Source of the DNA: a virus
Taxonomy: Duplodnaviria; Caudoviricetes
Virus record (IMG/VR): IMGVR_UViG_3300021255_002539
Coordinates: 192,001 to 256,000 of that record
Direction: 5' to 3' (one strand)
DNA: 64,000 bases
Shown here: positions 20,188-43,229 of the stretch, one piece after another
Numbering within the stretch: position 1 is the stretch's first letter
Layout of the letters: each line of letters opens with the position of its first letter
Made by a program: the position numbers and the translations under genes
The notes under the pieces: model-generated
What the model saw: the letters and a program-made list of their open reading frames with translations, nothing else
Told to the model about the DNA's origin: nothing
Database searches by the model: none

Positions 20188-21831
20188 ATGGAATGGTATA
20201 GACTTTACAAGGAATCTTCTGATGGATTGACCAAGGATGAGTTCGACAAGTTGTTCTACGACTATGTTGATGCTGTTGACGAGTATTATTGGCAGGAAGG
20301 ATACAAGTCCAAGACCGCCAATATGCTCAAATTGAAGATGAAGGAGTTCATTGACACTGTGAAGTCGAATGTGTCCAGTGACTACAAGCACGACGACCCG
20401 AAGTGGGAAGAGCATGTCAGTATGGTCATAATCGAACTTGACGACATCATAGGCGATGGAAATGACGATTGGATAGAGAGGAAGAAAAGGCAGTTGTGGT
20501 ATGACTTCATTGCTTACAAGTCCTTGCCTGGGGAGAACACCAACGAGTCCTCTGAAGAACCAGTTGACCTCAAGAAACTCCTCAAGTTGAATGGCGTGAC
20601 GAAGCTTCCATCCGGGAGCCAAATCAAGCCAAACAGAATCAGTTGGAGCAAGCGGGGTGGATATGCTGGCCGAAAGACACTTGACCAGATGCGCGAGGTG
20701 CTTGAAGACGCAGGATGGAAGAAGGGGGAGTGGAAGCCAGATGGTTCGCCAGATGGCTCTTGGGTGTCGAATTCAGACAGCTACACATCCCCCGACGGCA
20801 AGATAGTGATGTCCTACTATTCCTGCTATGGGGCGACATCAAGGGACAACAGCTACGGCTTCACATTCAAGTTGGCAGAAAGCCAAATGAACGAGTCGGA
20901 TGAATTGGACGATTGGAACGATGGCGTGCCGAAGGTATACAAGTATCATTCCGACGATACAATTTCCCCAAAGGAGTTTGCTTCCATTGTTCGTTCAACA
21001 GAGCATACAGTAGAGGACATATTCATTCAGAACAGTGACTTCTACGAGAATGCTGACGATCCTTGGGGGGAGTTTGTGAACGACATGTGCCAAGGCAAGT
21101 CCCCAGAGGAGGCGTTGGAACTTGACTACTACATGAATTCGTCGGCCCGGGAGCAGCTTCCAGACGACATTGCCAAGTATGTATATGCGAACGACTTTGA
21201 CGCAATGCAGTGGCTGCGTGGAATATTCGAGCGGCTTATGCCAATATGCAAAGACCCAGTAAATGAGTCTGAAATAAAGGGAACTGGCAGGGTCGATTTC
21301 GACGACGACCTGGTTGCCGTATATACCCCTGATGGAAAACTTGAATACAAGGGGTTGTTCGACGATTGCCCATACAAGGACGACGACATGAGGTACGACA
21401 AGACCACCATGACATATCGCATTGAGGGACCAAATGGCGACTATCGGACGATGGCGAAACTTGCTGAGAGCTGCAGGGAGTCCAGTAGATTTGGCTTCAA
21501 CATTGGAGACAAGGTTGAACTCAAGTCTGATGTCGAGCCAAACAGATTCAGCGGCAGGGGTGTTGTCCCCGCCGGGACAGTTGGAGAGGTTGTCGCAATT
21601 GACAAGCCCATGCGTGGTGTCATCAAGGTGAAGATTGAGGATGGAACAGTGGTTTCGGTGCCTGAGCGCAAGTTGAAGTTCGCAGGAACCGACAACGAGC
21701 CCTGGGAGAAGTACAAAGTCCCAGCGAAGCCAAAACCGTCATTGAAGGAAATCCTGGACAAGCATGGTCCAGAGGAAATCTACAACGAGCCTCCACCAGC
21801 AGACGGTTCTCCAAAGTGGACAGGTGACTGA
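20188..21831 (+). CDS. Multi-module acidic protein with MEWYRLYKES leader (putative internal head polyprotein)
   Basis: 547-aa ORF after GTAAATA (20154). Modules are separated by xNE|S / LAE|S sites. Last module is SH3/KOW-like (FNIGDKVEL..GTVGEVVAI). Confidence 0.7.
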   Translation: MEWYRLYKESSDGLTKDEFDKLFYDYVDAVDEYYWQEGYKSKTANMLKLKMKEFIDTVKSNVSSDYKHDDPKWEEHVSMVIIELDDIIGDGNDDWIERKKRQLWYDFIAYKSLPGENTNESSEEPVDLKKLLKLNGVTKLPSGSQIKPNRISWSKRGGYAGRKTLDQMREVLEDAGWKKGEWKPDGSPDGSWVSNSDSYTSPDGKIVMSYYSCYGATSRDNSYGFTFKLAESQMNESDELDDWNDGVPKVYKYHSDDTISPKEFASIVRSTEHTVEDIFIQNSDFYENADDPWGEFVNDMCQGKSPEEALELDYYMNSSAREQLPDDIAKYVYANDFDAMQWLRGIFERLMPICKDPVNESEIKGTGRVDFDDDLVAVYTPDGKLEYKGLFDDCPYKDDDMRYDKTTMTYRIEGPNGDYRTMAKLAESCRESSRFGFNIGDKVELKSDVEPNRFSGRGVVPAGTVGEVVAIDKPMRGVIKVKIEDGTVVSVPERKLKFAGTDNEPWEKYKVPAKPKPSLKEILDKHGPEEIYNEPPPADGSPKWTGD

Positions 21832-21863
21832 TAAATACAATTATAGACAAAGAGGATAAACAC

Positions 21864-22394
21864 ATGAAATGGATTAAAATGAACGAATCAACTAGATATG
21901 ACCCTTGGCGAGGGGACGACATCAATGACTATGTTATGGAAATTCTCGCAAAGTTCACCAACGACATTCCAACAGACGAGGAATTCTTCAGAGGAAATTG
22001 CCTTAAATTCCTTGATGTCGACATCGTTGATGGTCACATGGAATACAACACAGTTGAAGGAAAATGGTCAAGCGAGAACACCTATCCACATCTACATAAA
22101 TATGATGGGTTTACCCAAGCAAGTCTTTCCTGTTTCCACAAGAATGAATTGCATGTGATAAATGGTCCTGACACATGGGTGTTTTATTTCAATGAATCTG
22201 CAACTTGGGAAGATGTCGTGGAAGCAGCAGTCCATTTTACTCACGATGTTGTCCCAGAATTGAGCGAGGAAGTCAAGGAAGAGATTTTGCATGCGTTAAG
22301 AGGAAAAGCAGTGACACAACACGCCATTGAATCGCTTATTCCAGTGATGAAAAAGTATGGTGGAAAGGACATATTTGTTCGCTCCGCTGGCTGA
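21864..22394 (+). CDS. Hypothetical protein with MKWIKMNES leader
   Basis: ORF with GAGG RBS and ATAAATA upstream (21831). Confidence 0.7.
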   Translation: MKWIKMNESTRYDPWRGDDINDYVMEILAKFTNDIPTDEEFFRGNCLKFLDVDIVDGHMEYNTVEGKWSSENTYPHLHKYDGFTQASLSCFHKNELHVINGPDTWVFYFNESATWEDVVEAAVHFTHDVVPELSEEVKEEILHALRGKAVTQHAIESLIPVMKKYGGKDIFVRSAG

Positions 22395-22407
22395 AAGGAA
22401 GATCTGA

Positions 22408-23130
22408 ATGCTGGATATAGACAACTTGATAGCCGCAGGGGTTCAGACGACCCAGGAGATGGAAGTCAAGAAGGGGAGTGCCAGCTATGGCACAGGGAAG
22501 AACAAGAACGCCAAGGAAATTCCCTTTGAGATTGACGGTCACACCTACATGCTCGACTCCCAGGAGGAATGGTGCATGTTCAACTGGATCAAGGAGATGA
22601 AGGAACATGGTCTGCTCTTGGATTATGTCTACCAACCGGAGCACTGGGAATTGACCCCCAGGTTCGAATACACGCCATATCCAACGGTTGTGGACAAGAA
22701 GAAACGCCCTGTTGACGAGAAGTACGCGAATGTTCCGACGCCATTCAAGACCAAGTTCCTGATGCATCCCCACATCTACACAGCAGACTTCACCTTGAAG
22801 TTTGACGCGAACAACCTGAAGTTGATGGAGTATCTGTCACAGGCGTTCAAGTTGAGGTTGGACGATGTTCAGGATGGCGTTTTGACTTTGGTTGTGGACG
22901 TGAAGGGAACTTTCATGAGCAACGATGGCGGACGCAGTTTCTCCATCAACCAGAAAATGATGATGGCAGTCCACAACATCTACGTCCAAAAGTTCGTGCC
23001 AAAGGTGGCGTTCAAGAAGCTGGGCGTTCCAAAAAGATGCACCACCACGATGAAGTCCGGCAAGGCAAGCAAGGTGTTCAAGGGAATGAACTTCATGGAG
23101 ACTGTGCTTAAAAGGTTTTCCATATTGTAA
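22408..23130 (+). CDS. DUF1064-like PD-(D/E)xK endonuclease
   Basis: DSQEE..YQP..YTADF..VVDVKG..INQKMM pattern. Confidence 0.65.
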   Translation: MLDIDNLIAAGVQTTQEMEVKKGSASYGTGKNKNAKEIPFEIDGHTYMLDSQEEWCMFNWIKEMKEHGLLLDYVYQPEHWELTPRFEYTPYPTVVDKKKRPVDEKYANVPTPFKTKFLMHPHIYTADFTLKFDANNLKLMEYLSQAFKLRLDDVQDGVLTLVVDVKGTFMSNDGGRSFSINQKMMMAVHNIYVQKFVPKVAFKKLGVPKRCTTTMKSGKASKVFKGMNFMETVLKRFSIL

Positions 23131-23160
23131 ATATTACAAGAGTACAAAGAGGACAAATCT

Positions 23161-23496
23161 ATGAAATGGAGAAAACTGTACAAAGAATCCGAAAATGATT
23201 TCTATGCCACGCATTCAAACAGAGAGATACTGGAAACATTGATGGAAGATATAATGTCTGTCCTTCCATTGAGATACCAGGTTGAGATTATTGGCAATGA
23301 AATCGTGATTCCATTTGACACAACCAGATTTAGATTTAGGGACGTTGATAGTATCAAGATAAGTGACGCGATTCAGGAATTGGTGGATGAGGTTCGGGCA
23401 ATCGTTGACGCTTTCTGCGACATGAATGGAATTGAGAACAGATTCAAGGTGGATAGGTTTTTCGGAGACCCTGGAGTGAGCGTCTCCTTAACATGA
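23161..23496 (+). CDS. Hypothetical protein with MKWRKLYKES leader
   Basis: ORF with GAGG RBS and GTAAATA at 23127. Confidence 0.7.
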   Translation: MKWRKLYKESENDFYATHSNREILETLMEDIMSVLPLRYQVEIIGNEIVIPFDTTRFRFRDVDSIKISDAIQELVDEVRAIVDAFCDMNGIENRFKVDRFFGDPGVSVSLT

Positions 23497-23570
23497 CAAG
23501 TGTAAATGACTTTCGCTTTACAATTCTCACCAGATGTGGTACAATGGATTGAGAAAGGAAACTTAAATCC

Positions 23571-23867
23571 ATGATAGAAATTGAATATAAATTGACAGAA
23601 GACGAAACCAAGATGGTCAAGCGTTGGGCGCCGATTCTAGAGAAGTGTGGAAACCTTGCAACCCCCAAGGAAAAACTGTATCTTGCCAACACACTTGATG
23701 CATTTAGGCAGAGTTACAATGCAGCCAATCTAAAAGACAGAATATTGGAAGATGGTGGGACAATCTACATATCCAATCCAACCGGAACCAAGCGACTTGC
23801 GATTTCATATGACGACAAGGGAGATTTTTCCATAACTAGTCAGCACAGGGATTGGGTCAACAATTGA
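23571..23867 (+). CDS. Small protein resembling the N-terminal propeptide of the major capsid protein
   Basis: MVKRWAPILEKCG..KEKLYLANTLD aligns with MCP LLKRWAPVLEKGA..EKKLVLAQVLE. Confidence 0.7.
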   Translation: MIEIEYKLTEDETKMVKRWAPILEKCGNLATPKEKLYLANTLDAFRQSYNAANLKDRILEDGGTIYISNPTGTKRLAISYDDKGDFSITSQHRDWVNN

Positions 23868-23881
23868 CCACTCCAACCCCC

Positions 23882-23911
23882 TTGACTTTTCGAGGGGGTT
23901 TGTGCTATAAT
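23882..23911 (+). promoter_or_regulatory. Sigma70-type early promoter (TTGACT-N18-TATAAT, extended -10 TG)
   Basis: Consensus match upstream of the 23943 gene. The -35 box sits inside an AACCCCCT..AGGGGGTT hairpin. Confidence 0.75.
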
Positions 23912-23942
23912 ATAGTCGTCAAGTGAGGAAAAGGAGATTACC

Positions 23943-24158
23943 ATGAACGACATCAACGACACCATCGCCACCTACGAAGCCAACCTTCGGGATGCTGAGA
24001 GGGATATCGAAAAGGCACTTCAATCCATTTGCGACCTCTATGGGGATGGCCAGCTTACTGAGGTGCGCAAGACCCTCAACGAAGCCCTGGCAATGGTTCA
24101 GTACAACCTGGGTGGGACATACCTGCTCTACGACAACCCTGAGATCAAGAGGTCGTGA
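23943..24158 (+). CDS. Small hypothetical early protein
   Basis: AGGAG RBS and strong promoter upstream. Confidence 0.7.
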   Translation: MNDINDTIATYEANLRDAERDIEKALQSICDLYGDGQLTEVRKTLNEALAMVQYNLGGTYLLYDNPEIKRS

Positions 24159-24204
24159 AGGGGTATTGAGTATCAACATAGTTGATAATAACACCCAAAG
24201 GGTA

Positions 24205-24234
24205 TTGACAAGACCGATGCATTTGTGATATAAT
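24205..24234 (+). promoter_or_regulatory. Sigma70-type early promoter (TTGACA-N18-TATAAT, extended -10 TG)
   Basis: Perfect hexamers upstream of the 24273 gene. Confidence 0.8.
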
Positions 24235-24272
24235 ATTGGCGTAGTGAGGAGAAGTCTAAAGGAGCAGACGCC

Positions 24273-24695
24273 ATGATTGACTACAACAAGATATTTGACC
24301 GTAATGCCCATACCACTGATGTTGGGGAGCTTCTTCTGGTTCTGTTCGACCGAAACAACACACTGGCTGACAAGCGCAAGGTGTGGAGAAAGTGGCGTGA
24401 CGAATACTTCTCCAACGATGTCCTTATCGAGTTCTTCTCAGACTCGTTGTTTGCCAAAGACAGACCCAACTACTTGGATGCCGTATTTCAGGGGAACTAC
24501 AAGAACTTCTATGAGATGGCGTGTTCGCTTGACATTGCTGGCATAGATCCCAGGGCATACTACATCTATTGGATTCTGTGCTATGGACATTCATTTGCAT
24601 CTGGTCTCCTCAAGGAGGCATTGGAGTACGACCCCGAGACCATCAAGGGTATGTTCCCGGACATTGAGCAGGTAATCATGGACAAGGGAGTTTGA
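24273..24695 (+). CDS. Hypothetical early protein
   Basis: AAGGAG RBS. First gene of a three-gene run. Confidence 0.7.
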   Translation: MIDYNKIFDRNAHTTDVGELLLVLFDRNNTLADKRKVWRKWRDEYFSNDVLIEFFSDSLFAKDRPNYLDAVFQGNYKNFYEMACSLDIAGIDPRAYYIYWILCYGHSFASGLLKEALEYDPETIKGMFPDIEQVIMDKGV

Positions 24696-24699
24696 CACG

Positions 24700-25065
24700 A
24701 TGAACCCTTTGATGTCAGAAGCCCGAATCTTGGAACTCATAGATGAGGCGCACAACCATCAGATGAGGTGGTCTAGTTGTGATTTCAATTCAATTCAGTT
24801 CAAGATACGAGATGACAAGAAGTTCAGGAATGTGTATTTCTCTGATGTAATTGAATATTGTAGGCAATCCCATAGGCTGGACGAAATTCCCTCGGTGATG
24901 TTTGACTTGTCGCTCCACCAATTCTACATATCGAATGTGAAGGCACTCGCATATGGAATTCTGCGTGTCACTTTCAAGCATTGCGAACACGGTCGGGACA
25001 CCAACTATGGGGCTGACACCATAGATTGTCTTATGTCAGTGGCCAAAAGGATGCTGAAGTTGTGA
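24700..25065 (+). CDS. Hypothetical protein
   Basis: Closely follows the previous gene. GGGAG RBS. Confidence 0.6.
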   Translation: MNPLMSEARILELIDEAHNHQMRWSSCDFNSIQFKIRDDKKFRNVYFSDVIEYCRQSHRLDEIPSVMFDLSLHQFYISNVKALAYGILRVTFKHCEHGRDTNYGADTIDCLMSVAKRMLKL

Positions 25066-25088
25066 ATAACTTGAAAGAGGATACAACC

Positions 25089-25397
25089 ATGTCACGGGAA
25101 TACAAGATGCCCAAGGCAATTGAGAACAAGCTCCACGCAATCTATGACGCTGAGGAATATGGGGATTGCGCAGAACAGGCTGTGATTGACGCCGCGTCCG
25201 AATTTGGCTATGAGGTCGAGGACGAGAAGGTATCTCAGCAGGATAGGGGTGATGGTGGCTTCATGCGCGATGTGAAGCTGGTGAAGCGAGAGCCTGGTCC
25301 ATGGGGCGAGGTAGTTCATGTTGGTTGGGCGCACTTCAACCATCCTGGTTCAGACTATGCCCATCACCGTGACGAGTGGTACATGTACTTCCTGTGA
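25089..25397 (+). CDS. Hypothetical protein
   Basis: MSREYK start with GAGG RBS. Ends TGA. Confidence 0.65.
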   Translation: MSREYKMPKAIENKLHAIYDAEEYGDCAEQAVIDAASEFGYEVEDEKVSQQDRGDGGFMRDVKLVKREPGPWGEVVHVGWAHFNHPGSDYAHHRDEWYMYFL

Positions 25398-25398
25398 T

Positions 25399-25860
25399 TC
25401 ACAACTTGTGGATGAACACCTTTGTGTTCGCAGACCCAAACTTGACCATTATCTTGTTGAGCATCGTGTTCCAATCGCCACCAGCAAGTCCACATCCAAT
25501 TCCATAGGGCATGTGGATGTCCAGGTTGAAGTAGTTTGCGATGTCCTCCAATTTGTCCAGAATTGTGTTCCATGCGCCATATTCGGTCATGTTGCCTTGT
25601 CGCCCTGGATATACTTGCCCAAAGCAATTTGCCACCACCAGGTTGTTTGACACCAAGGTATCCTGAACATGCCCAAGCAACTTCTTTGGGTTCTCCACGA
25701 ACGAATCGCAATCTTCCTTGTAGTTCTTGTACACCACAGGCCATTTGTTCTTGATTTGAAGCGCGATTCCAGCCCCCATTGCGCCAATGCAGTTTACTTG
25801 GTGGCATATTATCCCTGACTGGACTTCAAGCAAATCTGAATGTTCAAGTGTCCGAACCAT
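25399..25860 (-). CDS. Macrodomain protein (ADP-ribose processing, Poa1p/DarG-like class)
   Basis: IICHQVNCIGAMGAGIALQIKNKWP and MPYGIGCGLAGGDW motifs. Confidence 0.85.
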   Translation of the reverse strand: MVRTLEHSDLLEVQSGIICHQVNCIGAMGAGIALQIKNKWPVVYKNYKEDCDSFVENPKKLLGHVQDTLVSNNLVVANCFGQVYPGRQGNMTEYGAWNTILDKLEDIANYFNLDIHMPYGIGCGLAGGDWNTMLNKIMVKFGSANTKVFIHKL

Positions 25861-25869
25861 GGTGATGTA

Positions 25870-26130
25870 TTAGAATGTGGAGTGGATCATAATTGGGCCA
25901 TACTCTCCAGCATATGGCAGGCTGCGTAGGGTATTGTACCCAATCCAGTCATATGCCTCCTCGTGGGTCATCCCCTCTTTCACCAGACATTCCGCGAACT
26001 TGTCGTAGTCATAGACAACATGGTGGCCATCGCAGGTCAATCCCACTATGGCATCTTGGTATTGATCGGGCGTGTCTCCGAGATAGACCAAATCCTCGTT
26101 CTGGTTCTTCAGTTGCTCAATGTCAATCAT
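25870..26130 (-). CDS. Conserved phage hypothetical protein
   Basis: DAIVG..VVYDYDK..GMTHEEAYDWIGYN..PI pattern common in phage small proteins. GGAGAG RBS. Confidence 0.65.
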   Translation of the reverse strand: MIDIEQLKNQNEDLVYLGDTPDQYQDAIVGLTCDGHHVVYDYDKFAECLVKEGMTHEEAYDWIGYNTLRSLPYAGEYGPIMIHSTF

Positions 26131-26518
26131 TGCTTGTCTCTCTCCTTTCAACTTCCAGACAAATTGTCTTTCCGTCAGATGGAATTCCCTTCCATCCAAG
26201 AATCTCATATGGCTGTCCGATGTCCACTTTCGCCACTATGAAGTCTGTGTCGAATATCTTGTATTGCTTCCCTTCAAGTTCAATGTCCACCCCAACTGCC
26301 TCTGTCATGACGACATCATTTGGTTTCAGGTTGATCTTCTTGAACTGGCCATTACCCTTCACCCACTTGACCTTGTAGAGCTTGAGGTTGTCCTTGGAGA
26401 GCCTGTCGTCAAGCTTCGTGGATGCAAGGAATGTGTTGCCAAAGTCAGCAACGCTGACATCAGCGTTCCAGCATTCCTCGCAGATTATCCTGTTGTCTCT
26501 GGTTATCTCGATGTCCAT
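26123..26518 (-). CDS. GroES/Cpn10-like co-chaperonin (divergent)
   Basis: LKPNDVVM..GVDIELEGKQYKIFDTDFIVAKV resembles the GroES C-terminus (VKVGD..GTEVKIDGEEYLILRESDILAIV). Confidence 0.6.
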   Translation of the reverse strand: MDIEITRDNRIICEECWNADVSVADFGNTFLASTKLDDRLSKDNLKLYKVKWVKGNGQFKKINLKPNDVVMTEAVGVDIELEGKQYKIFDTDFIVAKVDIGQPYEILGWKGIPSDGKTICLEVERRETSND

Positions 26519-26530
26519 GTTGTATTGTAA

Positions 26531-27274
26531 TTAGTTCTCAAGAGTTTCGGCATTCGTGTCGTCCGAGAAATGTGCAGAATGCACGAAATATGTGGGACTC
26601 AACTTGAAAATATGCCTATGCGTGTTCAATGTGGTATTGAAGTAGACATCAACATAGATGTAGTCTGTCTTGTCCAATGTCTTGTTGGTTATTTTCCATT
26701 TGCTTATTATGCCGGAGTAGGATTTTTTCAACTCTTTCAATCCCTTGTCGATGAACTTCTTGGTCTTGCTCATGCTGAATGGCTCTTTTGCCGATTCACG
26801 GATTCCATTTATTGACGAGATGCATTGTTCCTGAATGTCGCAGTCTGCCATCATGGTCTTGTCCAACGCATTTTCCTTGTATGGAACATGGAGATTGTGC
26901 TGCCTTTTCGCAGATTCGCTCAATGACTTCGCCTTTTTCCTGTCAACATCCAAAAGACGCATAATCCTATTGACATGCTTGGTCGAGTATTCATTGAACG
27001 GAAAGTCAGTTATTGCCATTTCCCTTTCCGTGTTTTTGAGGGTCTTGATTCTCTCGGACTTGCTTGGCATCTTGGCGTCCGAAGCAGTGTTCTTGGTGTG
27101 AAGACCCTCTCTCAGCAAAATGGATTCCAATTCCTTCGTGATGTCCTTTGCAAGCACATCCCTGTTCTTGCGCAGAAGTTCCATGAACTCGTCCAGAGCT
27201 TTCCTGGACTTGCTTTTGTCTTGTTTCAATGACTTCTTGGCTTTCTTGCTCGTTTTGGTGGGTTTCTTGTTCAT
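26531..27274 (-). CDS. Basic hypothetical protein
   Basis: 247-aa Lys-rich ORF between the two GroES-like genes. AAGGA RBS. Confidence 0.65.
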   Translation of the reverse strand: MNKKPTKTSKKAKKSLKQDKSKSRKALDEFMELLRKNRDVLAKDITKELESILLREGLHTKNTASDAKMPSKSERIKTLKNTEREMAITDFPFNEYSTKHVNRIMRLLDVDRKKAKSLSESAKRQHNLHVPYKENALDKTMMADCDIQEQCISSINGIRESAKEPFSMSKTKKFIDKGLKELKKSYSGIISKWKITNKTLDKTDYIYVDVYFNTTLNTHRHIFKLSPTYFVHSAHFSDDTNAETLEN

Positions 27275-27293
27275 GTTTGCGTGATCCTTTCTG

Positions 27294-27896
27294 TCAATCG
27301 TTGACCTTCGCTATGATGGCGTCTGTCTTGTAGATGAGAATTGGCTTGTCTGGATCCAGGCTGGAATCCCCCTTGAAGCCATGCAGGGTGTCGTGTTCGT
27401 CCTTCGTGAGCAGAACCTTGTCGCCAACCTTGAACTTGGATGCGTTGTCCTCTGCCCCATCGTATGGAGGGGTGATGGACTTGATTACGCCGATGTGCAT
27501 CTCGTCTGATGTTGGGATTATGAAGCCACCACTCTTGTTTTCGTTGGACTCATTGACCTCCTGCACTATGCATCTGCCACCCATTGCCCTGTACTTGGTC
27601 TTCTCTGGGTTGGATTCCATTATCAGTCCTGTGTACCTTAGAACCGCTATTGGTTGGGTGTGGTAGAATGTGGACAGGGTGTCGTAGAACGCCCAGTCCC
27701 CCTCCTGCAAATTGGTCTCGGACTTCGCCTTGTCTCCAATCTTGAGTATCTGGGCAAATCCAACCCGAAGGTTTCTAAGCGCGTCGTCCCCAATCACGAA
27801 GCCGGATGACTTCGTTGACAATGTGTCGTTGTCCTTGATCCTAATCACCACGCAGTCTGAAGCTGGCTCGATGTTCTCGTTGTCGAAATGTATCAT
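27294..27896 (-). CDS. Tandem two-domain GroES-like co-chaperonin (Cpn20-like, 200 aa)
   Basis: Two repeats of the GroES pattern: IEPASDCVVIR..TKSSGFVI..LQEGDWAFY and YRAMGGRCIVQ..KSGGFIIP..FKVGDKVLL..DAIIAKV. Confidence 0.75.
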   Translation of the reverse strand: MIHFDNENIEPASDCVVIRIKDNDTLSTKSSGFVIGDDALRNLRVGFAQILKIGDKAKSETNLQEGDWAFYDTLSTFYHTQPIAVLRYTGLIMESNPEKTKYRAMGGRCIVQEVNESNENKSGGFIIPTSDEMHIGVIKSITPPYDGAEDNASKFKVGDKVLLTKDEHDTLHGFKGDSSLDPDKPILIYKTDAIIAKVND

Positions 27897-27984
27897 ATGA
27901 TGTAGCCTTTCACCTTTCAATTATACGAAAACGCGCCCCCTATTGAAAGGAAGCGCGTTTCGCCTTGTGATGTGTCGGTTTGTC

Positions 27985-28689
27985 TCACATTTCGTCTTCT
28001 GGCAAGTCCTCGTAGTAATCCATGCCGTTTTCCAATGCGGCATTCTCCATATACTGCCAAAACTCGTCCTTGATTTGCTCTCCCTTCCAATCGTCGTCAA
28101 GAACCTCGTCCAAATTGGGGCCAAGGTACTTCGCTATTTCATCATCCCCCCAACCTGCGCTTGACAAGTAGTCGTAGATGTCATATGCAATTCTCTGCAT
28201 TGTCTTGTCGTCGAGTTGGCTTGCAGCCATTGGTTCGGGCAGTGATTCGTAGTCGTACCTCGTGATTGTCACGCCCTTGTAGGTGAATTCCTTTTCCATG
28301 TCATCAAAGGACTCCTTGAGCATTTTACCCTATACCATCTTGAAGTCAGCAACTTTATTGCCATTCTGACTTATGACAATGAATTCGTCGTCTTCAACCC
28401 AAATAGCTTTTCCGTTACATTTACGGGCAATGAAATTTCCATTTCGTTCAATCCACTGTTTACATGACTTCATGGAATTAAAAGTACGGATTTGGTCTTC
28501 ATTCCAATTTTCGCATGATGCAAGGCAGGTAATGTGTCCCATATCATTGGATTCCTTGAACATCAGCACTTTGCCTTTGTTGGTCTTGAATACCTTGCCA
28601 CTTTCTGACACGTATTCAAGTTTGCCGTATTTGCGCGTGAAGTAGTTGCTTTTTTCAAAAGCTTCCTTCGTTATTGGTAGTTTCTTCAT
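27985..28689 (-). CDS. Two-module protein with MKKLPITK leader (234 aa, 1 in-frame TAG)
   Basis: ORFs 28330-28821 and 27985-28323 are joined in frame across TAG 28330 (..KMV-Q-GKMLKES..). RBS GAGGAAACAAAAC-ATG. Confidence 0.75.
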
Positions 28690-28717
28690 GTTTTGTTTCC
28701 TCGTTATTTGTCGAAAA

Positions 28718-30472: not shown

Positions 30473-30521
30473 GGTTGTCTATTGCCTCTCTTGTTGATAT
30501 GTCAAGGTTGTTGTCATATCC

Positions 30522-30553
30522 TATTTACAATTTTGGGCTTGGAATTGTAAATA
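30522..30553. promoter_or_regulatory. Divergent pair of late-type promoters TATTTAC-N18-GTAAATA
   Basis: Between divergent genes 30472(-) and 30586(+). Confidence 0.7.
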
Positions 30554-30585
30554 GACTACGATGAACAACAAAAGGGTTTACTGAG

Positions 30586-31902: not shown

Positions 31903-31905
31903 CAT

Positions 31906-33354: not shown

Positions 33355-33379
33355 TTAAACAATGGAGGATTTGACACAA

Positions 33380-33814: not shown

Positions 33815-33821
33815 TTTGAAC

Positions 33822-36455: not shown

Positions 36456-36477
36456 ATTTGATTGGAGATACAAAACT

Positions 36478-37041
36478 ATGGATATGAACAAAACAACAAG
36501 GGAATTCGGGAAAAGACTTGAAAACGGCGACATCCAGTATGCCCCAACTGAATTTGATGATGGGCATGGTGGCGTTGTGGTTCCTGAGCCAGAGGACGAC
36601 GAAGCCTACTATTCCAGGGGTTGGTTGAAGGTTGTTGACATTCAGCCAAATGTGCCAGGAACACAGATAGCAGTATTGACAGATTGGGTTGAGGATCTGG
36701 AGAAGAAGACAATCACTGCCCAGTACACGATAGAGGACATGCCCCAGCCAAAGGAGCAAATCCAGGTCCGCAGGTTCAGCAAGTTGCGCCTCGTCGAGTT
36801 CTGCATGGAGCGGGGTGTATGGCAGGAGTTGAAGTCCTTCATCGAGCAACTGGGCTACTACGATCTGTTCGTGATGGCGCAAGTGTTCCTGGAGAACGAC
36901 AAGTTCTTCATGGGTGGATTGACCGCCTACAAGCAGATGAAGATTGAGGGTGGGGCCGATCCCGAGCAGATCCAAGCAACCATAGACGCAGGATTGGACT
37001 ACGCATTCGACGCATACGAAACGGTGGATGTTGAGGACTGA
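36478..37041 (+). CDS. Tail-fibre-associated hypothetical protein
   Basis: GGAG RBS. Follows the fibre gene and is weakly similar to the 33380 protein. Confidence 0.6.
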   Translation: MDMNKTTREFGKRLENGDIQYAPTEFDDGHGGVVVPEPEDDEAYYSRGWLKVVDIQPNVPGTQIAVLTDWVEDLEKKTITAQYTIEDMPQPKEQIQVRRFSKLRLVEFCMERGVWQELKSFIEQLGYYDLFVMAQVFLENDKFFMGGLTAYKQMKIEGGADPEQIQATIDAGLDYAFDAYETVDVED

Positions 37042-37064
37042 CCAAGGTAAATATACATATATAC

Positions 37065-37349
37065 ATGGCAAGCACTACACCAAAGAACATATCAGGCAAG
37101 TTGAAGAACAGCAGAGTGCAGGTGGACAACTTCATCTACACGCAGTTGCTCTCCAACAGAAGGTCGTTCTATGTCTACTGTGGCAAGTCCAAGAAGCGCA
37201 TATACCAAGGCTCATGCTCCAAGGAGATCAAGAACATCTACTTCGATGGCACTTGCGTGGTGTGCATCTGCGACAACAAGACCTACATATTCGGACCCCA
37301 GGACATGAGGTATCCCCTCAAGAACTGGCGGCAAATCAGGGAGTTCTGA
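37065..37349 (+). CDS. Small basic hypothetical protein
   Basis: ORF just downstream of GTAAATA (37047). Confidence 0.6.
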   Translation: MASTTPKNISGKLKNSRVQVDNFIYTQLLSNRRSFYVYCGKSKKRIYQGSCSKEIKNIYFDGTCVVCICDNKTYIFGPQDMRYPLKNWRQIREF

Positions 37350-37352
37350 AAC

Positions 37353-38234
37353 ATGAAGGCGACGATAACCAAGATTGACAACAATGGCACTGAGGTTGTG
37401 TGGGAGGGCGAAGTCTCATCCCCAGAGGAGGCGTTTGACATCTACACTGACGCCATAATGGACAGGAGGGCAGACGACCACTACCTTTGGGATGACTACA
37501 ACAGAATACTGGAAGGGCACAACAAGTTGTACAGAGACAAGCGCATAGGGTTGTTGAAGAAGAATGGGAAGATATACGAGACCTTCCTCAGAGGCCAGTA
37601 CAGCCTGGAACTTGAGATATTCGACGACGATGATGAGGATGACGAGGAGAATTGGTTTGTCGCCGAGAGTTTGGATCCCAAGTACGACGACCAGCCAGAG
37701 AACCAATATGGCGAGAAGTGGTAGATTCTGAGGGGGACATACCTCAACTCCGTACTTGAGTCCATAATGCAGGACATTCAGATTGACCCAACAGAAGATG
37801 GTCCCAAGATGGAAAGACTCTCCCTTGGGGGACTCCACATTTGCGAGGATGGGCATCTCATAGCCGAGATATATGGTGGGGCGAATGGTGGTGGATTCCG
37901 TGGGGTGGAAAGCAACTGGCCCTACTACCTGTCCCTGGTCCGCAAGTTCTTGGGCAAGCTTCTGAACTACGACAATGGGAATATGTTCAAGGATGTCTGG
38001 CTGGTGGATTGGGACAACGACTGCTGCGACGATGTATGGACATTGACATTGGGAATAGAATTGTCGGACCAGGAAAAGCTGCAACTCGCTGAAGATGGAA
38101 AGATGTTCTCAGTAGTTGATCCCACCAAGTTGGATGTTGGTCTGGATGCGGCCGTGGCCGTTGTGTCAAATGAACCAATTGATGTCGCCAATGCGGCAGC
38201 AGCAGTAGCAGCAGAATCCAGGAAGCGAAAATAA
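37353..38234 (+). CDS. Acidic two-module hypothetical protein (293 aa, 1 in-frame TAG)
   Basis: ORFs 37353-37724 and 37767-38234 are in frame across TAG 37722. Confidence 0.7.
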
Positions 38235-38410
38235 CCAACTTGTTCAGATTTGCGTAACTCAGATTTGAACAACTTGAAAACTCTGTTCAGCTTTTTTTCG
38301 TATAATTGTAAATAGACAATGGCAAGGGAAAGTCAGGAAGGTTTCCGGCGACTACCGAGCCAAATGGTTGATTGCGAAAACAACAACCAAAAAACAGGAG
38401 GAACAGAAAT

Positions 38411-38905
38411 ATGTTCGAGATAATGAACCCACTGGCCACATGGGACGATATGTGGCAAAACATGCTTGCCTTGACGGAGTATCCGTTCAACAATGGCAAG
38501 AACCTGATGAACACAGGGCTACGTAAACTGATTGGTCGGCCCCACAATTTGGTGAATGTCACCGACAAGGACGGCAACATCATCGAGCAAAGGCTGGAGG
38601 TTGTCACGACGCCATTCAAGAAGGAGGATGTGGATGTCCAGGTTTCTGGCAACACATTGACCGTAAAGTGTGGCTCCGAACAAGAAGAACTCCAGGAAGC
38701 ACCCGAAGATGGGAAGGATAAGCCTGTTGAGAAGTACCTGTACAAGGGCATTTCCGAGCAGTACTACACCTTCTCCCTCAAGTTGTCGGACAAGATTGAC
38801 AAGACCGCAATCAAGGCAAAGAACCAAGATGGCGTCTTGACAATCACCCTTCCATACAAGAAGGAGACCAAGTCTGGCGACATCGCCAAGATAACTGTGG
38901 AGTAA
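38411..38905 (+). CDS. Small heat-shock protein (Hsp20/alpha-crystallin)
   Basis: FKKEDVDVQVSGNTLTV..YLYKGIS..AKNQDGVLTITLP. AGGAGG RBS. Confidence 0.88.
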   Translation: MFEIMNPLATWDDMWQNMLALTEYPFNNGKNLMNTGLRKLIGRPHNLVNVTDKDGNIIEQRLEVVTTPFKKEDVDVQVSGNTLTVKCGSEQEELQEAPEDGKDKPVEKYLYKGISEQYYTFSLKLSDKIDKTAIKAKNQDGVLTITLPYKKETKSGDIAKITVE

Positions 38906-38931
38906 TGGAAGAACCACAGAGACAAGCAGTA

Positions 38932-38971
38932 ATCGGGGTGGGTTTACGGACCCACCCCGATGTCGTATAAT
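38932..38971 (+). promoter_or_regulatory. Hairpin ATCGGGGTGGGT..ACCCACCCCGAT overlapping a TTTACG-N17-TATAAT promoter for DNA polymerase
   Basis: 12-bp inverted repeat. -35-like TTTACG at 38943-38948 and TATAAT at 38966-38971. Confidence 0.7.
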
Positions 38972-38992
38972 ATAGAAAGGGAAGTTTTAACT

Positions 38993-41863
38993 ATGGTAAA
39001 CATTGACTACACTTTGAGATACGATGTCGAGAAGATTCGCTCTATAATAGAACCAAACGATGGCTACTGCTGGGTATACTACGATCCACTGGGGATGGAC
39101 AGGAAATTGGACGAGAATGGCAGAATCGTATTGAAGTGCTATGAACGCGGTACCCACAAACCCATAGTGGTTGAGGTCAAGGACTTCCCATCAACGCTTT
39201 GGCATCGGACATCCAAGTCAGACGAGATTGCGAAGGCAACAGGCGTAGTGGACGCATATGGGCATCCTGTCGTCCAGGAGACCTTCTTCAACGCAGCAGC
39301 CAGGAAGAAGTGGATTTACGCATGGAAGAAGAGGGAGGACTATTGCGACAACCAAATCGTCGAGTGCTACGAGCCATGCGACGAGTTCATGCAGAGCATA
39401 TTCTGGCACGAGGCGCAGGAGGAGACCTTCAACAAGGGGGTTCAAAGGACATTCTTCCTGGATATCGAGACAGAGGTTTCCGAGACCTCCCTCATGCCAT
39501 GGAAGGCTGTTGACAAGATGCTCATGATAACGGTTCTGGACTCCAAGGACTGGAAGTTCCACACATGGTCTCTGAAGCCCTGTGCAAAGTTGTCTGACAA
39601 CCACGAGGTATACGACTTCAACGACGACGAGGCTGCGATGCTCAAGCACTTCCTCAAGTTCTGGGCAAGCAACTACCCAGATGTCGTGTGTGGATGGAAC
39701 TCGAAGTGGTACGACATGCCCTACATCGTCAGGAGAATCGAGAATGTCCTGGGGAGGAAGTGTGCGCGGTTCCTGTCCCCGATGGAGGACTACAGGATTG
39801 TCCACGAGAAGTCCGATAAGAAGGACGAGAACGGGAAGTGGATTGAGAAGGACGACATCGAGTGGGTGAACATAGCTGGTCTGTTCCAGGCTGACGACCT
39901 CATCCTCTACTCCAAGAAGTTTCAAGTGAAGGCTGCATTGGATGGCGGCTATGGTCTGTCCAATGTAGGTCTTGCAGAGGGATTGGGCGCGAAGGTGGCA
40001 TACGAGACCACGCTCAAGGATCTCTACCTCACTGATTGGCAGAAGTTCTACGAGTACAACGTCCGAGATGTCGACTTGTTGGCTGAGATTGAGAAGAAGT
40101 GCAAGTTGATTCCTCTGGCGAGGACTGTTGCTGGCTTCGGGTTGACGAACTACGACTACATCTACCAATCAGCCCCATACCTGGTGCCAACGATAACGAT
40201 ATTCTGCAGAAAGCATCGAGAGAAGATGGTGTTCAACTCATACGCCAACAACTTCCGCGAGAAGGTGAGGTTCGAGGGCGCATGGGTCGTGCCTCCATCT
40301 GAAGGAAGATATTCATATGGTACTGCGACAATTGACTTCAACTCGCTTTACCCATCGGCAATGCGGATGATGAACCTCTCTGTTGAGACCTATGTTGGGC
40401 GCATAGACGATGGCTACACTGGCGAAGGTGGCTTGGACAACGATTGGATGACCAGGGGTGGCATAGATGGCTACCCAGAGGATTATGTGTTCAAGTTGGT
40501 GATAGACAGGGTTGACATGAAGGATCCAATCTACAAGGAGATTGACGCAAAGACGCTCAAGGTTCTGCTGGGCACGAAGTTGATTATTTGCCCAACGAAC
40601 ATGACACTGTTCTTAAAGCACGAGGTCAAGAGGGGAGTCATCGCAGACTGGGCCGAGGTGTTCTTCAACCGAAGGAAGGCGACAAAGGGCGAGATGTTCA
40701 AGTGCGACCTGGACGCGGACAAGTGCCAGGATCCAGTGGAAAAGGAGAGGCTATTGACCAGAAAGGAAAATCTGCACAATCTCCAATACGCACTCAAGAT
40801 TTGCTTAAATTCGATTTACGGGGCCTTGTCGACGACAGGATGCCCATTTCTACATTCCATTGGACTTGCTCAATCAGTGACAAGGGCAGGGAGATTCTGT
40901 AACTACAATGGAAGATTGTTCTATGGTGAATGGCTTAAGGAGAACTATGGAATAGACGATTCGTATAAAATCACCTGCGGTGGCGACACCGATTCGAATT
41001 TTTTGAACCTTGAAGCAGTAACCAAGGACTTCATCAAGAAGTATGGTTGGGACGAGGACATGAACAACTGGACTGACGAGCAGAAGCTTCAGATGTTCGC
41101 GTATATGCAGAAGTTCACGGACGAATATCTTGTTCCACATGTCCAAGAATTGGTGACAAGGGAATTCCACACATCCAACGCGAAGCCCATGAAGTATGGC
41201 TTGGAATACATGACCAGTGGTGGAATTTTCGAGGGCAAGAAGCACTACATAGTACACAAGATAGTGGACGAGGGGCCAAAGGTCGTGAACAAGTTCAAAT
41301 ATACTGGAATCGAGTTGAAGAAAGCCGTGGTCCCACCTGAAATCAAGAAGTTCATGAAGGACATCTACTTCACCGCAGTACTGGACCCGAAGTTCAATCT
41401 GGAGGCAGCAAGGAAGAAGATGGACGAGGTGTATCAGGAGATCTTGAAGATGAACCCCAACCAACTCGCCAAGTGGCAGGGATATGGAACAGAATCCCAA
41501 ATGGATGGATTCTTGGTGGAGTCAAAGGGTGCCACTGGCATTGGCAAGTGCGCCAACTACTACAACCAGATTGTGAAGAAATTGGGCATGGACAACAAGT
41601 ATGCGTTGATAAATGTCGGGGACAAGGTTCAGACAATCTACATAAAGCCAACGAACAAGTTTGGAATAAACCAAATTGGCTTTCCACCAAAGCAGTGGCC
41701 AGAGGAGTTCAACGACATATTCGAGATTGACTACCCAAAGATGATGGAGAAGGTCGTAATATCCCCATTGAAGGGAATGCTCAAGGCGTTGGGGATGGAC
41801 AGCTTGATGAAGTACGATCCAAGTGTTGTTGCCAATTTGGAATACAGCATCGACGACATTTGA
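38993..41863 (+). CDS. gp43: Family B DNA polymerase, T4 gp43-like (956 aa)
   Basis: Exo motifs DIET, GWNSKWYDMPY, YNVRDV. Polymerase motifs DFNSLYPS, KICLNSIYG, GDTDS, KKHY. No TAG codons. Confidence 0.95.
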   Translation: MVNIDYTLRYDVEKIRSIIEPNDGYCWVYYDPLGMDRKLDENGRIVLKCYERGTHKPIVVEVKDFPSTLWHRTSKSDEIAKATGVVDAYGHPVVQETFFNAAARKKWIYAWKKREDYCDNQIVECYEPCDEFMQSIFWHEAQEETFNKGVQRTFFLDIETEVSETSLMPWKAVDKMLMITVLDSKDWKFHTWSLKPCAKLSDNHEVYDFNDDEAAMLKHFLKFWASNYPDVVCGWNSKWYDMPYIVRRIENVLGRKCARFLSPMEDYRIVHEKSDKKDENGKWIEKDDIEWVNIAGLFQADDLILYSKKFQVKAALDGGYGLSNVGLAEGLGAKVAYETTLKDLYLTDWQKFYEYNVRDVDLLAEIEKKCKLIPLARTVAGFGLTNYDYIYQSAPYLVPTITIFCRKHREKMVFNSYANNFREKVRFEGAWVVPPSEGRYSYGTATIDFNSLYPSAMRMMNLSVETYVGRIDDGYTGEGGLDNDWMTRGGIDGYPEDYVFKLVIDRVDMKDPIYKEIDAKTLKVLLGTKLIICPTNMTLFLKHEVKRGVIADWAEVFFNRRKATKGEMFKCDLDADKCQDPVEKERLLTRKENLHNLQYALKICLNSIYGALSTTGCPFLHSIGLAQSVTRAGRFCNYNGRLFYGEWLKENYGIDDSYKITCGGDTDSNFLNLEAVTKDFIKKYGWDEDMNNWTDEQKLQMFAYMQKFTDEYLVPHVQELVTREFHTSNAKPMKYGLEYMTSGGIFEGKKHYIVHKIVDEGPKVVNKFKYTGIELKKAVVPPEIKKFMKDIYFTAVLDPKFNLEAARKKMDEVYQEILKMNPNQLAKWQGYGTESQMDGFLVESKGATGIGKCANYYNQIVKKLGMDNKYALINVGDKVQTIYIKPTNKFGINQIGFPPKQWPEEFNDIFEIDYPKMMEKVVISPLKGMLKALGMDSLMKYDPSVVANLEYSIDDI

Positions 41864-41912
41864 TGCTGTTTCATGTAAATACTTCTATACAGCCCAAATG
41901 AGGTATAGCAAC

Positions 41913-43229
41913 ATGAAAAGGAATAGACTTTACAAGGAATCTTCAGAAACCCCCGAATTCGTGAATTCGGACAGACTACGCAAGGAAATCAAGGAAGTGC
42001 TGGAGGAGGAGACTTCTGGCTGGGACGGGACGGACGATGATTCCGTGCAGTACATGAAGGATTCTGCGCCAGACTTCATAGACGAGTATGTGGAGGATGT
42101 TGTTGACGATGCTGTGAAGAGCTTCAACGAACTGGTGCATAGGAACGACACCTCTATGTGGGGCAACTTCAAGGACATCAGATACAACTGGGAGGGCTTC
42201 CACAATGAACTTCCACATGGCTGCACTTTGAAGGAAGTTGTTAAGATGATTGATGCTGGCGAGGACAACGAGATTACCAGGGAGTTCAAGAACTGGGCAG
42301 TTGACTGGTATTTCGAGGCATTTGGCACATATAACTTGAAGTACAAGTGGTCGGAATTCATGGGCGAGGTTGCTGCCGACCATGAATACCAGCAGGAAAG
42401 GGATGCTGAGGATGAGGGCGAATACAATGAGTCCTGCAGAAAGATTCATGACAAAAGAAAGGTCGTGAAGGAGAGCTACGAGGTCTCTGATGATCTTGCA
42501 GATAGGTTGAACTCAATTCTGGCAGACGAGTTTCTTGCGGCGGAATTTTACAAGCTTGCTGAGCTTGCGATGAAGGGCAACAAGCAACACAGGCTGTCTG
42601 AGATTGCTGACGAGAATGGCGAGGACGAACTTGAGGATCACTTCAAGAACCTTTCTGAGTGGATGCAGTCCAAGGGAATCAGGGTTGTCACGAACCACGA
42701 CGAGATGCTTGACATCACCAATGGCAGTGTATTTACTGTGGAGGATGGGGATTCCACTTCTGACATCGTTGACAAGTTGATTCAGTCTGAGGAAGAGGCT
42801 ATTGAGGCATACGAAAACCTGATTCCTGACACTGACTTGGATTTGCGCGTCATGCTTTGTGGTTTCTTGAAGGACGAGCGGGAGCATCTAAAGGCATTGA
42901 CTGACGCAAAGGACGAGATGGGTGGTGGCAGCAGGTACGATGGCGAGGACAAGCCAAAGCACACCATATACGAGGGTGGACGAATGTCAAGGCATGAAGT
43001 TGAGCCAAACTACGAGGTATACAAGGCAGTTGACATTCAATGGGATGTTGACGATGAAGAGGATTTGGATGAACTTCCGACAGAAATGGAGGTTGAAGTT
43101 CCAAGGGATGTCATACGCGATGGCGAGGAAGCTGTGGAGGAATATGTTTCAGATGCAATTACTGATGAAACTGGATTCTGCCACAATGGCTTCTACTTGA
43201 GGGAGTTTTCCAAGCCTGTGAGGAGATGA
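41913..43229 (+). CDS. Multi-module protein with MKRNRLYKES leader and central ferritin-like domain (438 aa)
   Basis: LADEFLAAEFY..DELEDH..SEEEAIEAY..DEREH di-iron four-helix-bundle pattern at about 42474-42920. Late promoter at 41875. Confidence 0.75.
   Translation: MKRNRLYKESSETPEFVNSDRLRKEIKEVLEEETSGWDGTDDDSVQYMKDSAPDFIDEYVEDVVDDAVKSFNELVHRNDTSMWGNFKDIRYNWEGFHNELPHGCTLKEVVKMIDAGEDNEITREFKNWAVDWYFEAFGTYNLKYKWSEFMGEVAADHEYQQERDAEDEGEYNESCRKIHDKRKVVKESYEVSDDLADRLNSILADEFLAAEFYKLAELAMKGNKQHRLSEIADENGEDELEDHFKNLSEWMQSKGIRVVTNHDEMLDITNGSVFTVEDGDSTSDIVDKLIQSEEEAIEAYENLIPDTDLDLRVMLCGFLKDEREHLKALTDAKDEMGGGSRYDGEDKPKHTIYEGGRMSRHEVEPNYEVYKAVDIQWDVDDEEDLDELPTEMEVEVPRDVIRDGEEAVEEYVSDAITDETGFCHNGFYLREFSKPVRR

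Follow-up and report, generated by a model that had tools for sequence, protein, structure and literature searches.

The capsid-targeting sequence (CTS) of phage T4 is the textbook phage route for loading extra proteins beside the DNA, and cutting at joints is a design similar to that of RNA-virus polyproteins and peptide-hormone precursors. Here we examine a 64,000-base stretch (the window; bases 192001-256000 of the 414,060-bp phage record IMGVR_UViG_3300021255_002539) in which putative late genes share a short N-terminal leader ending at a Glu-Ser bond, and in which several proteins are built from modules jointed by such bonds. For T4, the passages drawn on here state that the first ten residues of IPIII suffice for head loading and suggest that T4-like phages load varied proteins via the CTS (PMC9026906, PMC3012670), that gp21, described with LIE-9, cuts after L/I-x-E, and that core proteins are cut into several fragments (PMC9026906). 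In SPN3US, according to the sections cited, the protease makes A-x-E cuts with Ser favoured at P1', several of them in long propeptides that are then cleared (PMC10052503). Polyvalent proteins are presented, in the part of the source used, as large head-packaged multi-enzyme chains for which processing via an embedded zincin-like peptidase has been proposed (PMC5512222, Iyer et al. 2017).

The record, that of a giant, uncultured phage related to T4, carries direct terminal repeats, and the window includes a major capsid protein gene of the gp23 family (PF07068, E 3.9e-72). The family-B polymerase, 26-28% identical to cultured T4-like phage polymerases, is the sole match among cultured records. 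TAG was taken as Gln in late genes and GTAAATA as the late promoter. Counts over the whole genome rest on a rough gene call of our own with TAG read-through allowed (444 genes, 121,982 residues), in which at least two starts are wrong (the capsid gene and the gene at genome 150715). Relatives are cited by label, namely the genomes G001 (418,068 bp; capsid protein 77% and polymerase 85% identical to those of this phage) and G002 and the proteins P0022-P0206. Two motif classes were counted, [VILMFY]xE[SAG], as proposed in an initial annotation of this DNA, and [VLIMYFC]xE[SA] for comparisons between groups of proteins, with expectations taken from shuffled sequences. The arrow in a motif marks the bond after Glu.

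We read the locus as carrying T4-style capsid-targeting leaders and protease-cut cargo polyproteins, a reading drawn from sequence features to which we give a probability of about 0.62. The short peptide would be the counterpart, on late proteins, of the T4 capsid-targeting sequence; it would most likely bind the scaffolding core, whereby the protein would be built into the prohead, and would then be removed by a gp21-type head protease cutting after Glu in hydrophobic-x-Glu↓Ser/Ala. In the multi-module proteins (of 547, 438, 234, 1220 and 342 amino acids, aa), which would hold one or two sites in every inter-module linker, one leader could load the whole string. The protease would dissect this string inside the head into separate 7-19 kDa domains or basic peptides of ~12 residues, and new strings would form as leader-bearing cargo genes fuse, split or are exchanged at the sites. 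Targeting and cleavage, together with retention in the head and delivery into the host, are what we infer from the anatomy described below.

Leader families on putative late genes

The initial annotation had pointed to a short leader family and to Glu-Ser-jointed modules, and both observations are confirmed. All six N-termini that it quoted are found in the sequence: MEWYRLYKE↓S (20188, +), MKWIKMNE↓S (21864, +), MKWRKLYKE↓S (23161, +) and MKRNRLYKE↓S (41913, +), and more loosely MKERKWVDIE↓S (19072, -) and MGWKRIEPQE (7379, -). The first four are strict members of a family of the form M-K-W-x-[KR]-hydrophobic-x(1-2)-E↓S, while the two loose ones are doubtful. Indeed, the gene at 17678-19072 (-) encodes a 464-aa protein with one TAG, Asp at P3 and no family match, and the one at 6429-7379 (-) an endolysin-like protein (PHROG) with a C-terminal LysM, one in-frame TAG and a start, MGWKRIEPQE↓N, that has Pro at P3. 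The latter is a late-promoter gene and has a hydrophobic N-terminal segment that could be a signal-anchor.

The short leader opens 12-13 genes that are unrelated beyond it, at least 10 of them presumably late, and its placement exceeds what chance would give. In the six frames of the 414,060-bp genome LYKE occurs four times; three of these are LYKES, each at residues 6-10 of an open reading frame (ORF), namely those at 20188, 23161 and 41913, and the fourth (LYKEF) is internal to the helicase. A leader regular expression finds 12 genes genome-wide (7379, 20188, 21864, 23161 and 41913 in the window; 15680, 95935, 120705, 169481, 184351, 273810 and 389146 in genome coordinates) and one more behind an in-frame Met. 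The core expression [KEGM][WF].[KR][ILM].{0,3}E[SA] has nine matches in the 121,982 residues, eight of them N-terminal; the ninth, at genome 150715, lies directly behind an in-frame Met that is probably the true start. The leaders end at protease-type motifs (YKE↓S, MNE↓S, IDE↓S, ICE↓S, VKE↓A, VSE↓S). A DNA-pattern scan for the leader gave 3 loci with a narrow pattern and, with a looser one in two relatives, 8 matches against 0 in the reversed control. In G001 and G002 the same leader stands on other bodies, including a BspA-type leucine-rich-repeat (LRR) protein, whereas the BspA-type LRR body of this genome stands behind a long leader instead.

This long leader, MKKLNITKE.FEKS.YF..KYG.LEYVSE↓SGK.FKT.KGK.L.FKE↓S, opens 8 genes genome-wide with unrelated bodies, those in the window being 5603-6394 (-), 27985-28689 (-), 43359-44387 (+) and 56159-56305 (+). 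The last of these is a 48-codon ORF made of the long leader alone with no body, a remnant or a broken gene. Internal copies of the long leader, placed behind an E↓S site, are found at genome 96800-97486 and also among the proteins of G001, where one copy is preceded by a ParB-like DGHHR domain. Once leaders are stripped, a comparison of the 20 bodies, 12 from short-leader and 8 from long-leader genes, reveals no similar pair at E<=0.01.

Both leaders are associated with late-promoter-like sequences. GTAAATA lies 25-39 nucleotides (nt) upstream of five of the six quoted starts, for instance at 20154-20160 (+) before the 547-aa gene and at 41875-41881 before the 438-aa gene, and ATAAATA (21831-21837) lies upstream of 21864. 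[GT]TAAATA within 70 nt upstream was found for 9 of the 12 short-leader genes and for 14 of the 20 short- and long-leader genes together, compared with 76 of all 444 genes (Fisher p 1e-7 for the 20). By contrast with the specific leader, the generic hydrophobic-x-E[SA] motif is not enriched in the first 12 residues of proteins (21 against 9-18 per later 12-residue bin); hence the signal is the specific leader, and the bare motif is insufficient to call cargo.

Two of the strict members are short genes. The 176-aa gene at 21864-22394 (+) carries an internal FNE↓S site behind MKWIKMNE↓S, and the 111-aa gene at 23161-23496 (+) a single module behind MKWRKLYKE↓S. Among these leader genes stands a leaderless gene of 240 aa (22408-23130, +) whose product weakly resembles a Holliday junction resolvase in PHROGs (E 3.1e-7). 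Two further sets of shared starts were seen. At least seven genes start nearly alike with MK(I/V/L)RTDYVSNSSSSSF (genome ~89910, 380449 and 409857-412291), five of which stand side by side close to the right end of the genome. Starts of the form MI(T/H)I.K(L/I)V..SI.ITTGP are found at 62870-63862 (-) in the window and at genome 270592, 340420, 350363 and 406234; at least three of these proteins (270592, 350363, 406234) match BspA-type leucine-rich-repeat sequence, and they are probably paralogues, not a leader family.

Modular proteins and their joints

The gene at 20188-21831 (+) was said to hold about five modules parted by E↓S sites, which is what we find. Its 547-aa product has exactly seven Glu-Ser bonds, after residues 9, 120, 231, 236, 360, 427 and 431. 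The leader MEWYRLYKE, ending at E9↓S10 (20188-20214), is followed by module A (residues 10-120; 20215-20547), which is helical with a net charge of -11 and ends NTNE↓S; by module B (121-231; 20548-20880), alpha/beta with a predicted local distance difference test score (pLDDT) >90, ending KLAE↓S; and, after a 5-residue spacer SQMNE between bonds 231 and 236 (20881-20895), by module C (237-360; 20896-21267; net -19), ending PVNE↓S. Module D (361-427; 21268-21468), a small beta domain, ends KLAE↓S, and a 4-residue spacer SCRE between E427↓S and E431↓S (21469-21480) leads to module E (432-547, plus stop; 21481-21831), a putative SH3/Tudor-like barrel with weak fold matches.

An AlphaFold model of this protein, built from 101 sequences (mean pLDDT 80.3; predicted template modelling score, pTM, 0.37), displays five folded units at residues ~12-110, 125-231, 240-357, 369-426 and 432-500, and pLDDT is below 50 only at 1-11, 111-124, 232-239, 358-368 and 427-429. 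All seven bonds lie in or beside these five segments, bond 231 being one residue and bond 431 two residues outside. Thus the sites fall in or beside linkers and not, as a check proposed in the initial annotation might have revealed, inside folded domains. The low pTM fits beads on a string. On Foldseek the model gave 0 matches against the PDB at E<=0.001 and only weak SH3/Tudor-like matches for the small barrel, and an ESM Atlas search with module B gave no usable match. More generally, Pfam and PHROGs assigned no family to any module except PF00210; no Pfam domain was found in the 547-aa, 1220-aa, 234-aa and 293-aa proteins, and only PF00210 in the 438-aa protein.

The same modules occur in related phages alone and in other orders, as the annotation had proposed to check. 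We scanned 119 family members of the 547-aa protein (118 relatives), 50 sequences being near-length and 69 shorter; many of the latter are pieces broken off at contig ends. With the five modules as BLAST queries, 21 architectures were seen, fragments included: B-E (17), B-D (16), B-C-E (14), B-D-E (13), E (11), C-E (10), B (8), B-C-D-E (6) and others, while A-B-C-D-E is found in this phage only among the architectures scanned. Complete architectures include the leader with E alone (P0110), leader-B-E, leader-C-E, A-B-D-E and C-D-D-E. Module A is present in 7 of the 119 members and stands alone behind a leader in 2, one of which (P0086) stops just past NTNE↓S and may be cut off. Module B directly follows the leader in most relatives, C is missing from those of the A-B-D-E, B-D-E and B-E types, D is doubled in P0022 and P0053, and E is the commonest C-terminal unit. 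As for the leader itself, 81 of the 118 relatives begin M(I)K[W/F/R], and the remaining 37 mostly begin within a module, apparently through truncation.

Furthermore, the joints are conserved together with the modules. When module starts were projected onto the 118 relatives, E↓S/A lay within 2 residues of the module start in 198 of 214 cases, compared with 6 of 263 module midpoints. Among 199 joints, P3 is V in 85, L in 35, Y in 21 and M in 15, and P2 is mostly N or D (N in 82). The double site KLAE↓S..NE↓S recurs in relatives as well. At 26 positions the Ser at P1' is encoded by TCN in 16 and by AGY in 10, and Glu by both GAA and GAG; such mixed codons indicate selection on the amino acid and not on the DNA. 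A DNA-level recombination signal at the joints, which was also considered, was rejected on this codon usage.

The 438-aa protein (41913-43229, +) presents a similar layout. Behind its leader MKRNRLYKE (41913-41939; pLDDT <50 at residues 1-15) come an N-module (residues 10-173; 41940-42431), helical with a net charge of -28 and ending EYNE↓S, then a basic 14-residue spacer SCRKIHDKRKVVKE that ends at E187↓S (42432-42473; pLDDT <50 at 169-187). A Dps-like mini-ferritin module follows, modelled with pLDDT >90 as a four-helix bundle (188-338; 42474-42926), and a C-terminal alpha/beta domain (364-438; 43002-43229) stands behind a disordered linker with TIYE↓G, where relatives have TIYE↓S or MYDE↓S. 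The low-confidence segments of the model are 1-15, 84-99, 169-187, 339-363 and 433-438, and E9, E173 and E187 are inside them.

The Dps-like module is matched by PF00210 (E 8.3e-10, 39.2 bits against a cut-off of 24.5), and its best Foldseek matches are Dps and Dps-like structures (2vzb, 8w1e, 2clb and E. coli Dps; template modelling score 0.78-0.90); phmmer with the 438-aa protein gave 0 matches among PDB sequences. The module opens with E↓SY(E/D) in 86 of 93 relatives. This Glu lies within the first 20 residues in 66 of the 93, as in MKVIKE↓SYEVS or MKSKRMVKE↓SYEVS, and behind other modules in 20. The context of the spacer, EYNE↓SCRKIHDKRKVVKE↓SYEV, resembles the stand-alone N-termini MK..(K/R)..VKE↓SYE, so the spacer looks like a fossil mini-leader held inside the fusion. 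At the same locus of G001, after the polymerase, there are instead two genes 3 nt apart, encoding an 83-aa protein that begins MKWNRLYRE↓S and a Dps-like protein that begins MKRIVKE↓SYEVS, while G002 has the N-module alone as a 155-aa short-leader protein (L004). The Dps-like module is also found behind the long leader in P0169 and behind MKFKKLVSE↓S in P0206. A library-wide search with it gave 78 representative clusters at E<=0.001, and the distant ones are mostly without such a leader.

A similar layout had been claimed for the genes at 41913, 27985, 37353 and 52478. Of these, 27985 is not a gene start if TAG is Gln, and the protein at 37353 is leaderless. With its one TAG taken as Gln, the frame at 27985-28689 (-) encodes a predicted protein of 234 aa that opens with the long leader (28552-28689); module 1 follows, then MLKE↓S, and module 2 (27988-28308) comes last. 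This protein has the sites YVSE↓S, MFKE↓S and MLKE↓S. In P0125, P0127, P0129, P0131, P0146, P0160 and P0162, module 2 serves as the N-module of a Dps-like fusion. The 293-aa protein at 37353-38234 (+; one TAG read as Gln) has the sites FVAE↓S and SVLE↓S, and the module formed by its first 91 residues recurs within relatives of both the 547-aa and the 438-aa protein. Since modules recur across the 547-aa, 438-aa, 234-aa and 293-aa families, they belong to one shared pool.

The largest of the four is an acidic protein of 1220 aa (52478-56140, +) that starts MRIVIDKDIPEIQLLQE↓S and has 12 sites of the annotation's motif compared with 5.6 expected (5 of 1000 shuffles). Compared with its G001 orthologue it contains an extra module of ~80 aa placed exactly between YLE↓S and VPE↓S. 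Directly before this gene lies one for a papain-like cysteine peptidase (51734-52420, +; PF00112, E 1.8e-10; PHROG 'peptidase'), itself preceded by a 2402-aa gene with 12 in-frame TAGs (44520-51728).

A different arrangement is seen in the 342-aa long-leader protein (43359-44387, +), where an acidic region with a net charge of -49 is followed by an Arg-rich array (44064-44384) of seven ~12-mers with a net charge of +36, parted by V/M-x-E↓S/A. G001 keeps this layout with 8 sites. Its make-up suggests a precursor in which an acidic pro-region would mask protamine-like basic peptides.

Head protease, motif distribution and competing explanations

A protease that could act on these sites is encoded outside the window, at genome 349588-350325. 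It belongs to the gp21 family of prohead proteases (Peptidase_S77, PF03420; 45.1 bits against a cut-off of 27), and in the alignment with T4 gp21 its ELEHP and GFSTRG match H85 and S140 of T4, the His of ELNHP and the Ser of GVSSRG being kept; we take these two to be the catalytic residues of the T4 enzyme. The protease itself has LITE↓S and LVKE↓S at its N-terminus and ILE↓S and VVE↓S in its C-terminal part. The major capsid protein (12600-14198, +) carries LFTE↓AAP (12750-12761), kept in G001, which corresponds to FLTE↓AEI of T4 gp23, although MAFFT sets the two eight columns apart; T4 gp23 is presumably cut after E65. As to the capsid gene start, ATG 12600 (MFKTNSEY..., as in T4 and G001) is probably right, GTG 12540 overlapping the upstream gene. 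This upstream gene (11488-12558, +) encodes a coiled protein dense in x-x-E↓S/A, with 10 sites compared with 2.25 expected (0 of 1000 shuffles). It has no family match, and its position and composition suggest that it may be the scaffold.

The distribution of [VLIMYFC]xE[SA] follows the same line. Scaffold-like protein and protease together have 12 sites against 2.6 expected (0 of 300 shuffles) and long-leader proteins beyond residue 34 have 17 against 4.7 (0 of 300), while the remaining 413 proteins show no enrichment, with 286 against 274 (72 of 300). With the annotation's motif, the control genes named for comparison are flat (polymerase 4 against 3.7, helicase 0 against 2.2). In the 547-aa and 438-aa proteins the counts are weak, and given this weakness the case rests on position and conservation.

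Several observations weigh against our reading. Motif counts are individually not significant in the 547-aa protein (5 against 2.5 expected; 98 of 1000 shuffles) and the 438-aa protein (5 against 3.0; 148 of 1000), and short-leader proteins as a group show a weak excess beyond residue 14 (15 against 9.8; 21 of 300). Module starts without E↓S/A within 2 residues make up 16 of the 214, several of these having E↓T, E↓G, E↓D or a site three residues off. In the 438-aa protein WYFE↓A at residue 135 matches the motif within a helix; judging from the model it is probably not a cut site, and the motif alone does not define a cut. Two members found by the regular expression, at genome 273810 and 389146, are without a late promoter and may stand outside the family, and the protein at 37353 shows module homology yet has no leader. 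The leader has only M-K, an aromatic residue and the hydrophobic-x-E end in common with the T4 CTS. The cargo is mostly strongly acidic (isoelectric point 4-5), compared with the basic internal proteins of T4, and acidic pieces may be expelled like propeptides instead of staying with the DNA. Finally, PHROG gave no family for any cargo protein, and a comparison of the region with 50,697 cultured phage records (megablast and tblastn) gave no match besides the polymerase.

The acidity of the cargo bears most directly on a rather unlikely alternative, in which the joints are cut but the upstream modules are long scaffold-like propeptides that are expelled, only one piece (e.g. module E or the Dps-like module) staying in the head. 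The sections of PMC10052503 cited here describe N-terminal propeptides of 111-254 residues in SPN3US that are removed by multiple A-x-E cuts with Ser favoured at P1'. Most upstream modules are strongly acidic, like the scaffold material that T4 expels, and module E is indeed the unit most often found at the C-terminus. However, the upstream modules are confidently predicted as folded domains of 8-19 kDa, and some are kept as separate leader genes (E in P0110, the N-module of the 438-aa protein in G002), which is unexpected for disposable material; moreover, the modules are not arranged in a set order about a single constant mature part.

It is less probable still that these are ordinary multi-domain proteins in which Glu-Ser is a favoured flexible linker or recombination joint that is never cut. 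Linkers rich in E, S, N and D are common and, as seen above, count enrichment is weak in the 547-aa and 438-aa proteins. Yet the same motif ends the N-terminal leaders and is enriched in scaffold-like protein and protease, with no such excess in the 413 other proteins; Glu stands at P1 in 198 of 214 joints with a hydrophobic P3, whereas the rest of the linker varies; and the use of both Ser codon families argues against a recombination signal in the DNA. Double sites 4-5 residues apart and the presumed fossil mini-leader make sense only as processing signals.

We consider it very improbable that the sites are cut outside the head by another enzyme, either a host protease or the papain-like peptidase of 51734-52420, whose Peptidase_C1-like gene (E 1.8e-10) does stand directly before the 1220-aa gene: the cited parts of PMC9026906 give a cut behind Glu, with P3 hydrophobic, as the rule for T4-type head proteases, and the motif is carried by the head protease as well as by the capsid and scaffold-like proteins. 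The shared start could in principle be an mRNA-level element for initiation or regulation of late messages, or another N-terminal signal, in favour of which the leaders of 20188 and 41913 share 22 identical nt in an A-rich region as in strongly translated starts, but this too is very improbable, as the 23161 leader encodes the same peptide with synonymous changes, relatives vary the leader codons and keep the peptide, the E↓S motif recurs internally at joints, and the quoted leaders hold no hydrophobic stretch suggestive of secretion.

Cargo polyproteins cut at their joints are thus the reading that we prefer. The initial annotation had proposed that the phage strings small effector domains into polyproteins that are packaged once and released during head maturation. 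The polyprotein part of that proposal agrees with modules predicted to fold separately, their occurrence alone or recombined in relatives, and the protease-type joints. The 'effector' role, on the other hand, is unsupported, since the Dps-like mini-ferritin is the only module whose function can be recognised, and acidic modules prevail.

Significance and comparison with known systems

A wider proposal, which we put forward tentatively, is that the head-protease site acts as a universal joint at which leader cargo can be fused, split and swapped with loading and release kept, so that a shared module pool would be loaded as fixed-ratio strings behind one tag, with a Dps-like mini-ferritin and Arg-rich 12-mers as new head contents. 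The T4-type tag would then be used more extensively here and in a novel format, namely polyproteins that can be cut at each joint, and fusion and fission at protease sites would explain the fast change of cargo sets. Two concrete candidates come out of the analysis, a head-loaded Dps-like protein and a basic-peptide array. If the proposal is true, a capsid-loaded mini-ferritin could guard packaged or freshly injected DNA against iron/oxygen damage, and the acidic pro-region would mask seven or eight Arg-rich 12-mers to be released as protamine-like DNA condensers. The leader could also give a simple sequence rule for predicting the head contents of uncultured giant phages, and the strings could serve as a natural model for packing several foreign proteins into engineered capsids by one tag.

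In the literature, as far as the parts seen of it go, we found no description of head-protease-jointed cargo polyproteins or of a head-loaded ferritin-like protein; the supplementary cleavage tables for SPN3US, phiKZ and 201phi2-1 may hold partial precedents. Encapsulin systems likewise use a short terminal peptide to direct ferritin-fold cargo into a HK97-fold shell. Their signal is C-terminal and not removed, whereas the one proposed here is N-terminal and ends at a protease site, the head is DNA-filled and the fold is of Dps type.

Polyvalent proteins, in the sections of PMC5512222 relied on, resemble the strings in that several unrelated domains form one late chain, probably head-packaged and injected, with extensive mosaicism. 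They are composed of recognisable enzymes, while the chains of this phage consist of small modules, mostly of unknown fold family, with head-protease joints and a short leader. Indeed, the several recognisable conflict-related enzyme domains that characterise polyvalent proteins were not found in a Pfam search of the 547-aa, 1220-aa, 234-aa, 293-aa and 438-aa proteins.

According to the cited portions of PMC10052503 and PMC9026906, SPN3US (gp245), phiKZ (gp175) and 201phi2-1 have a T4-like head protease that cuts single proteins at several sites, behind the Glu of a three-residue motif and preferably before Ser, as is proposed for this phage. There, the extra cuts lie in long propeptides cleared from the head and P3 is Ala or Ser, not hydrophobic; those portions make no mention of folded, shuffled modules with stand-alone gene counterparts.

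The closest likeness is to the T4 CTS of IPI, IPII, IPIII and Alt. In both cases an N-terminal peptide of about ten residues stands on unrelated proteins, in this phage presumably late ones, and ends with hydrophobic-x-Glu and a small residue, a gp21-family protease is present together with a gp23-family capsid protein that has a T4-like maturation site, and the cargo turns over fast between relatives. The differences lie in the leader sequence, which is basic here (MKWRKLYKE↓S) as opposed to MKTYQEFIAE↓A at the N-terminus of T4 IPII and IPIII; in the coexistence here of two or three leader types; in the many putative cargo genes that are strings of 2-6 modules with a predicted site at every joint; and in the mostly acidic cargo compared with the basic internal proteins of T4. 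Taken together, the system would work like the CTS/internal-protein system of T4, as a variant of it and not as a member at the sequence level.

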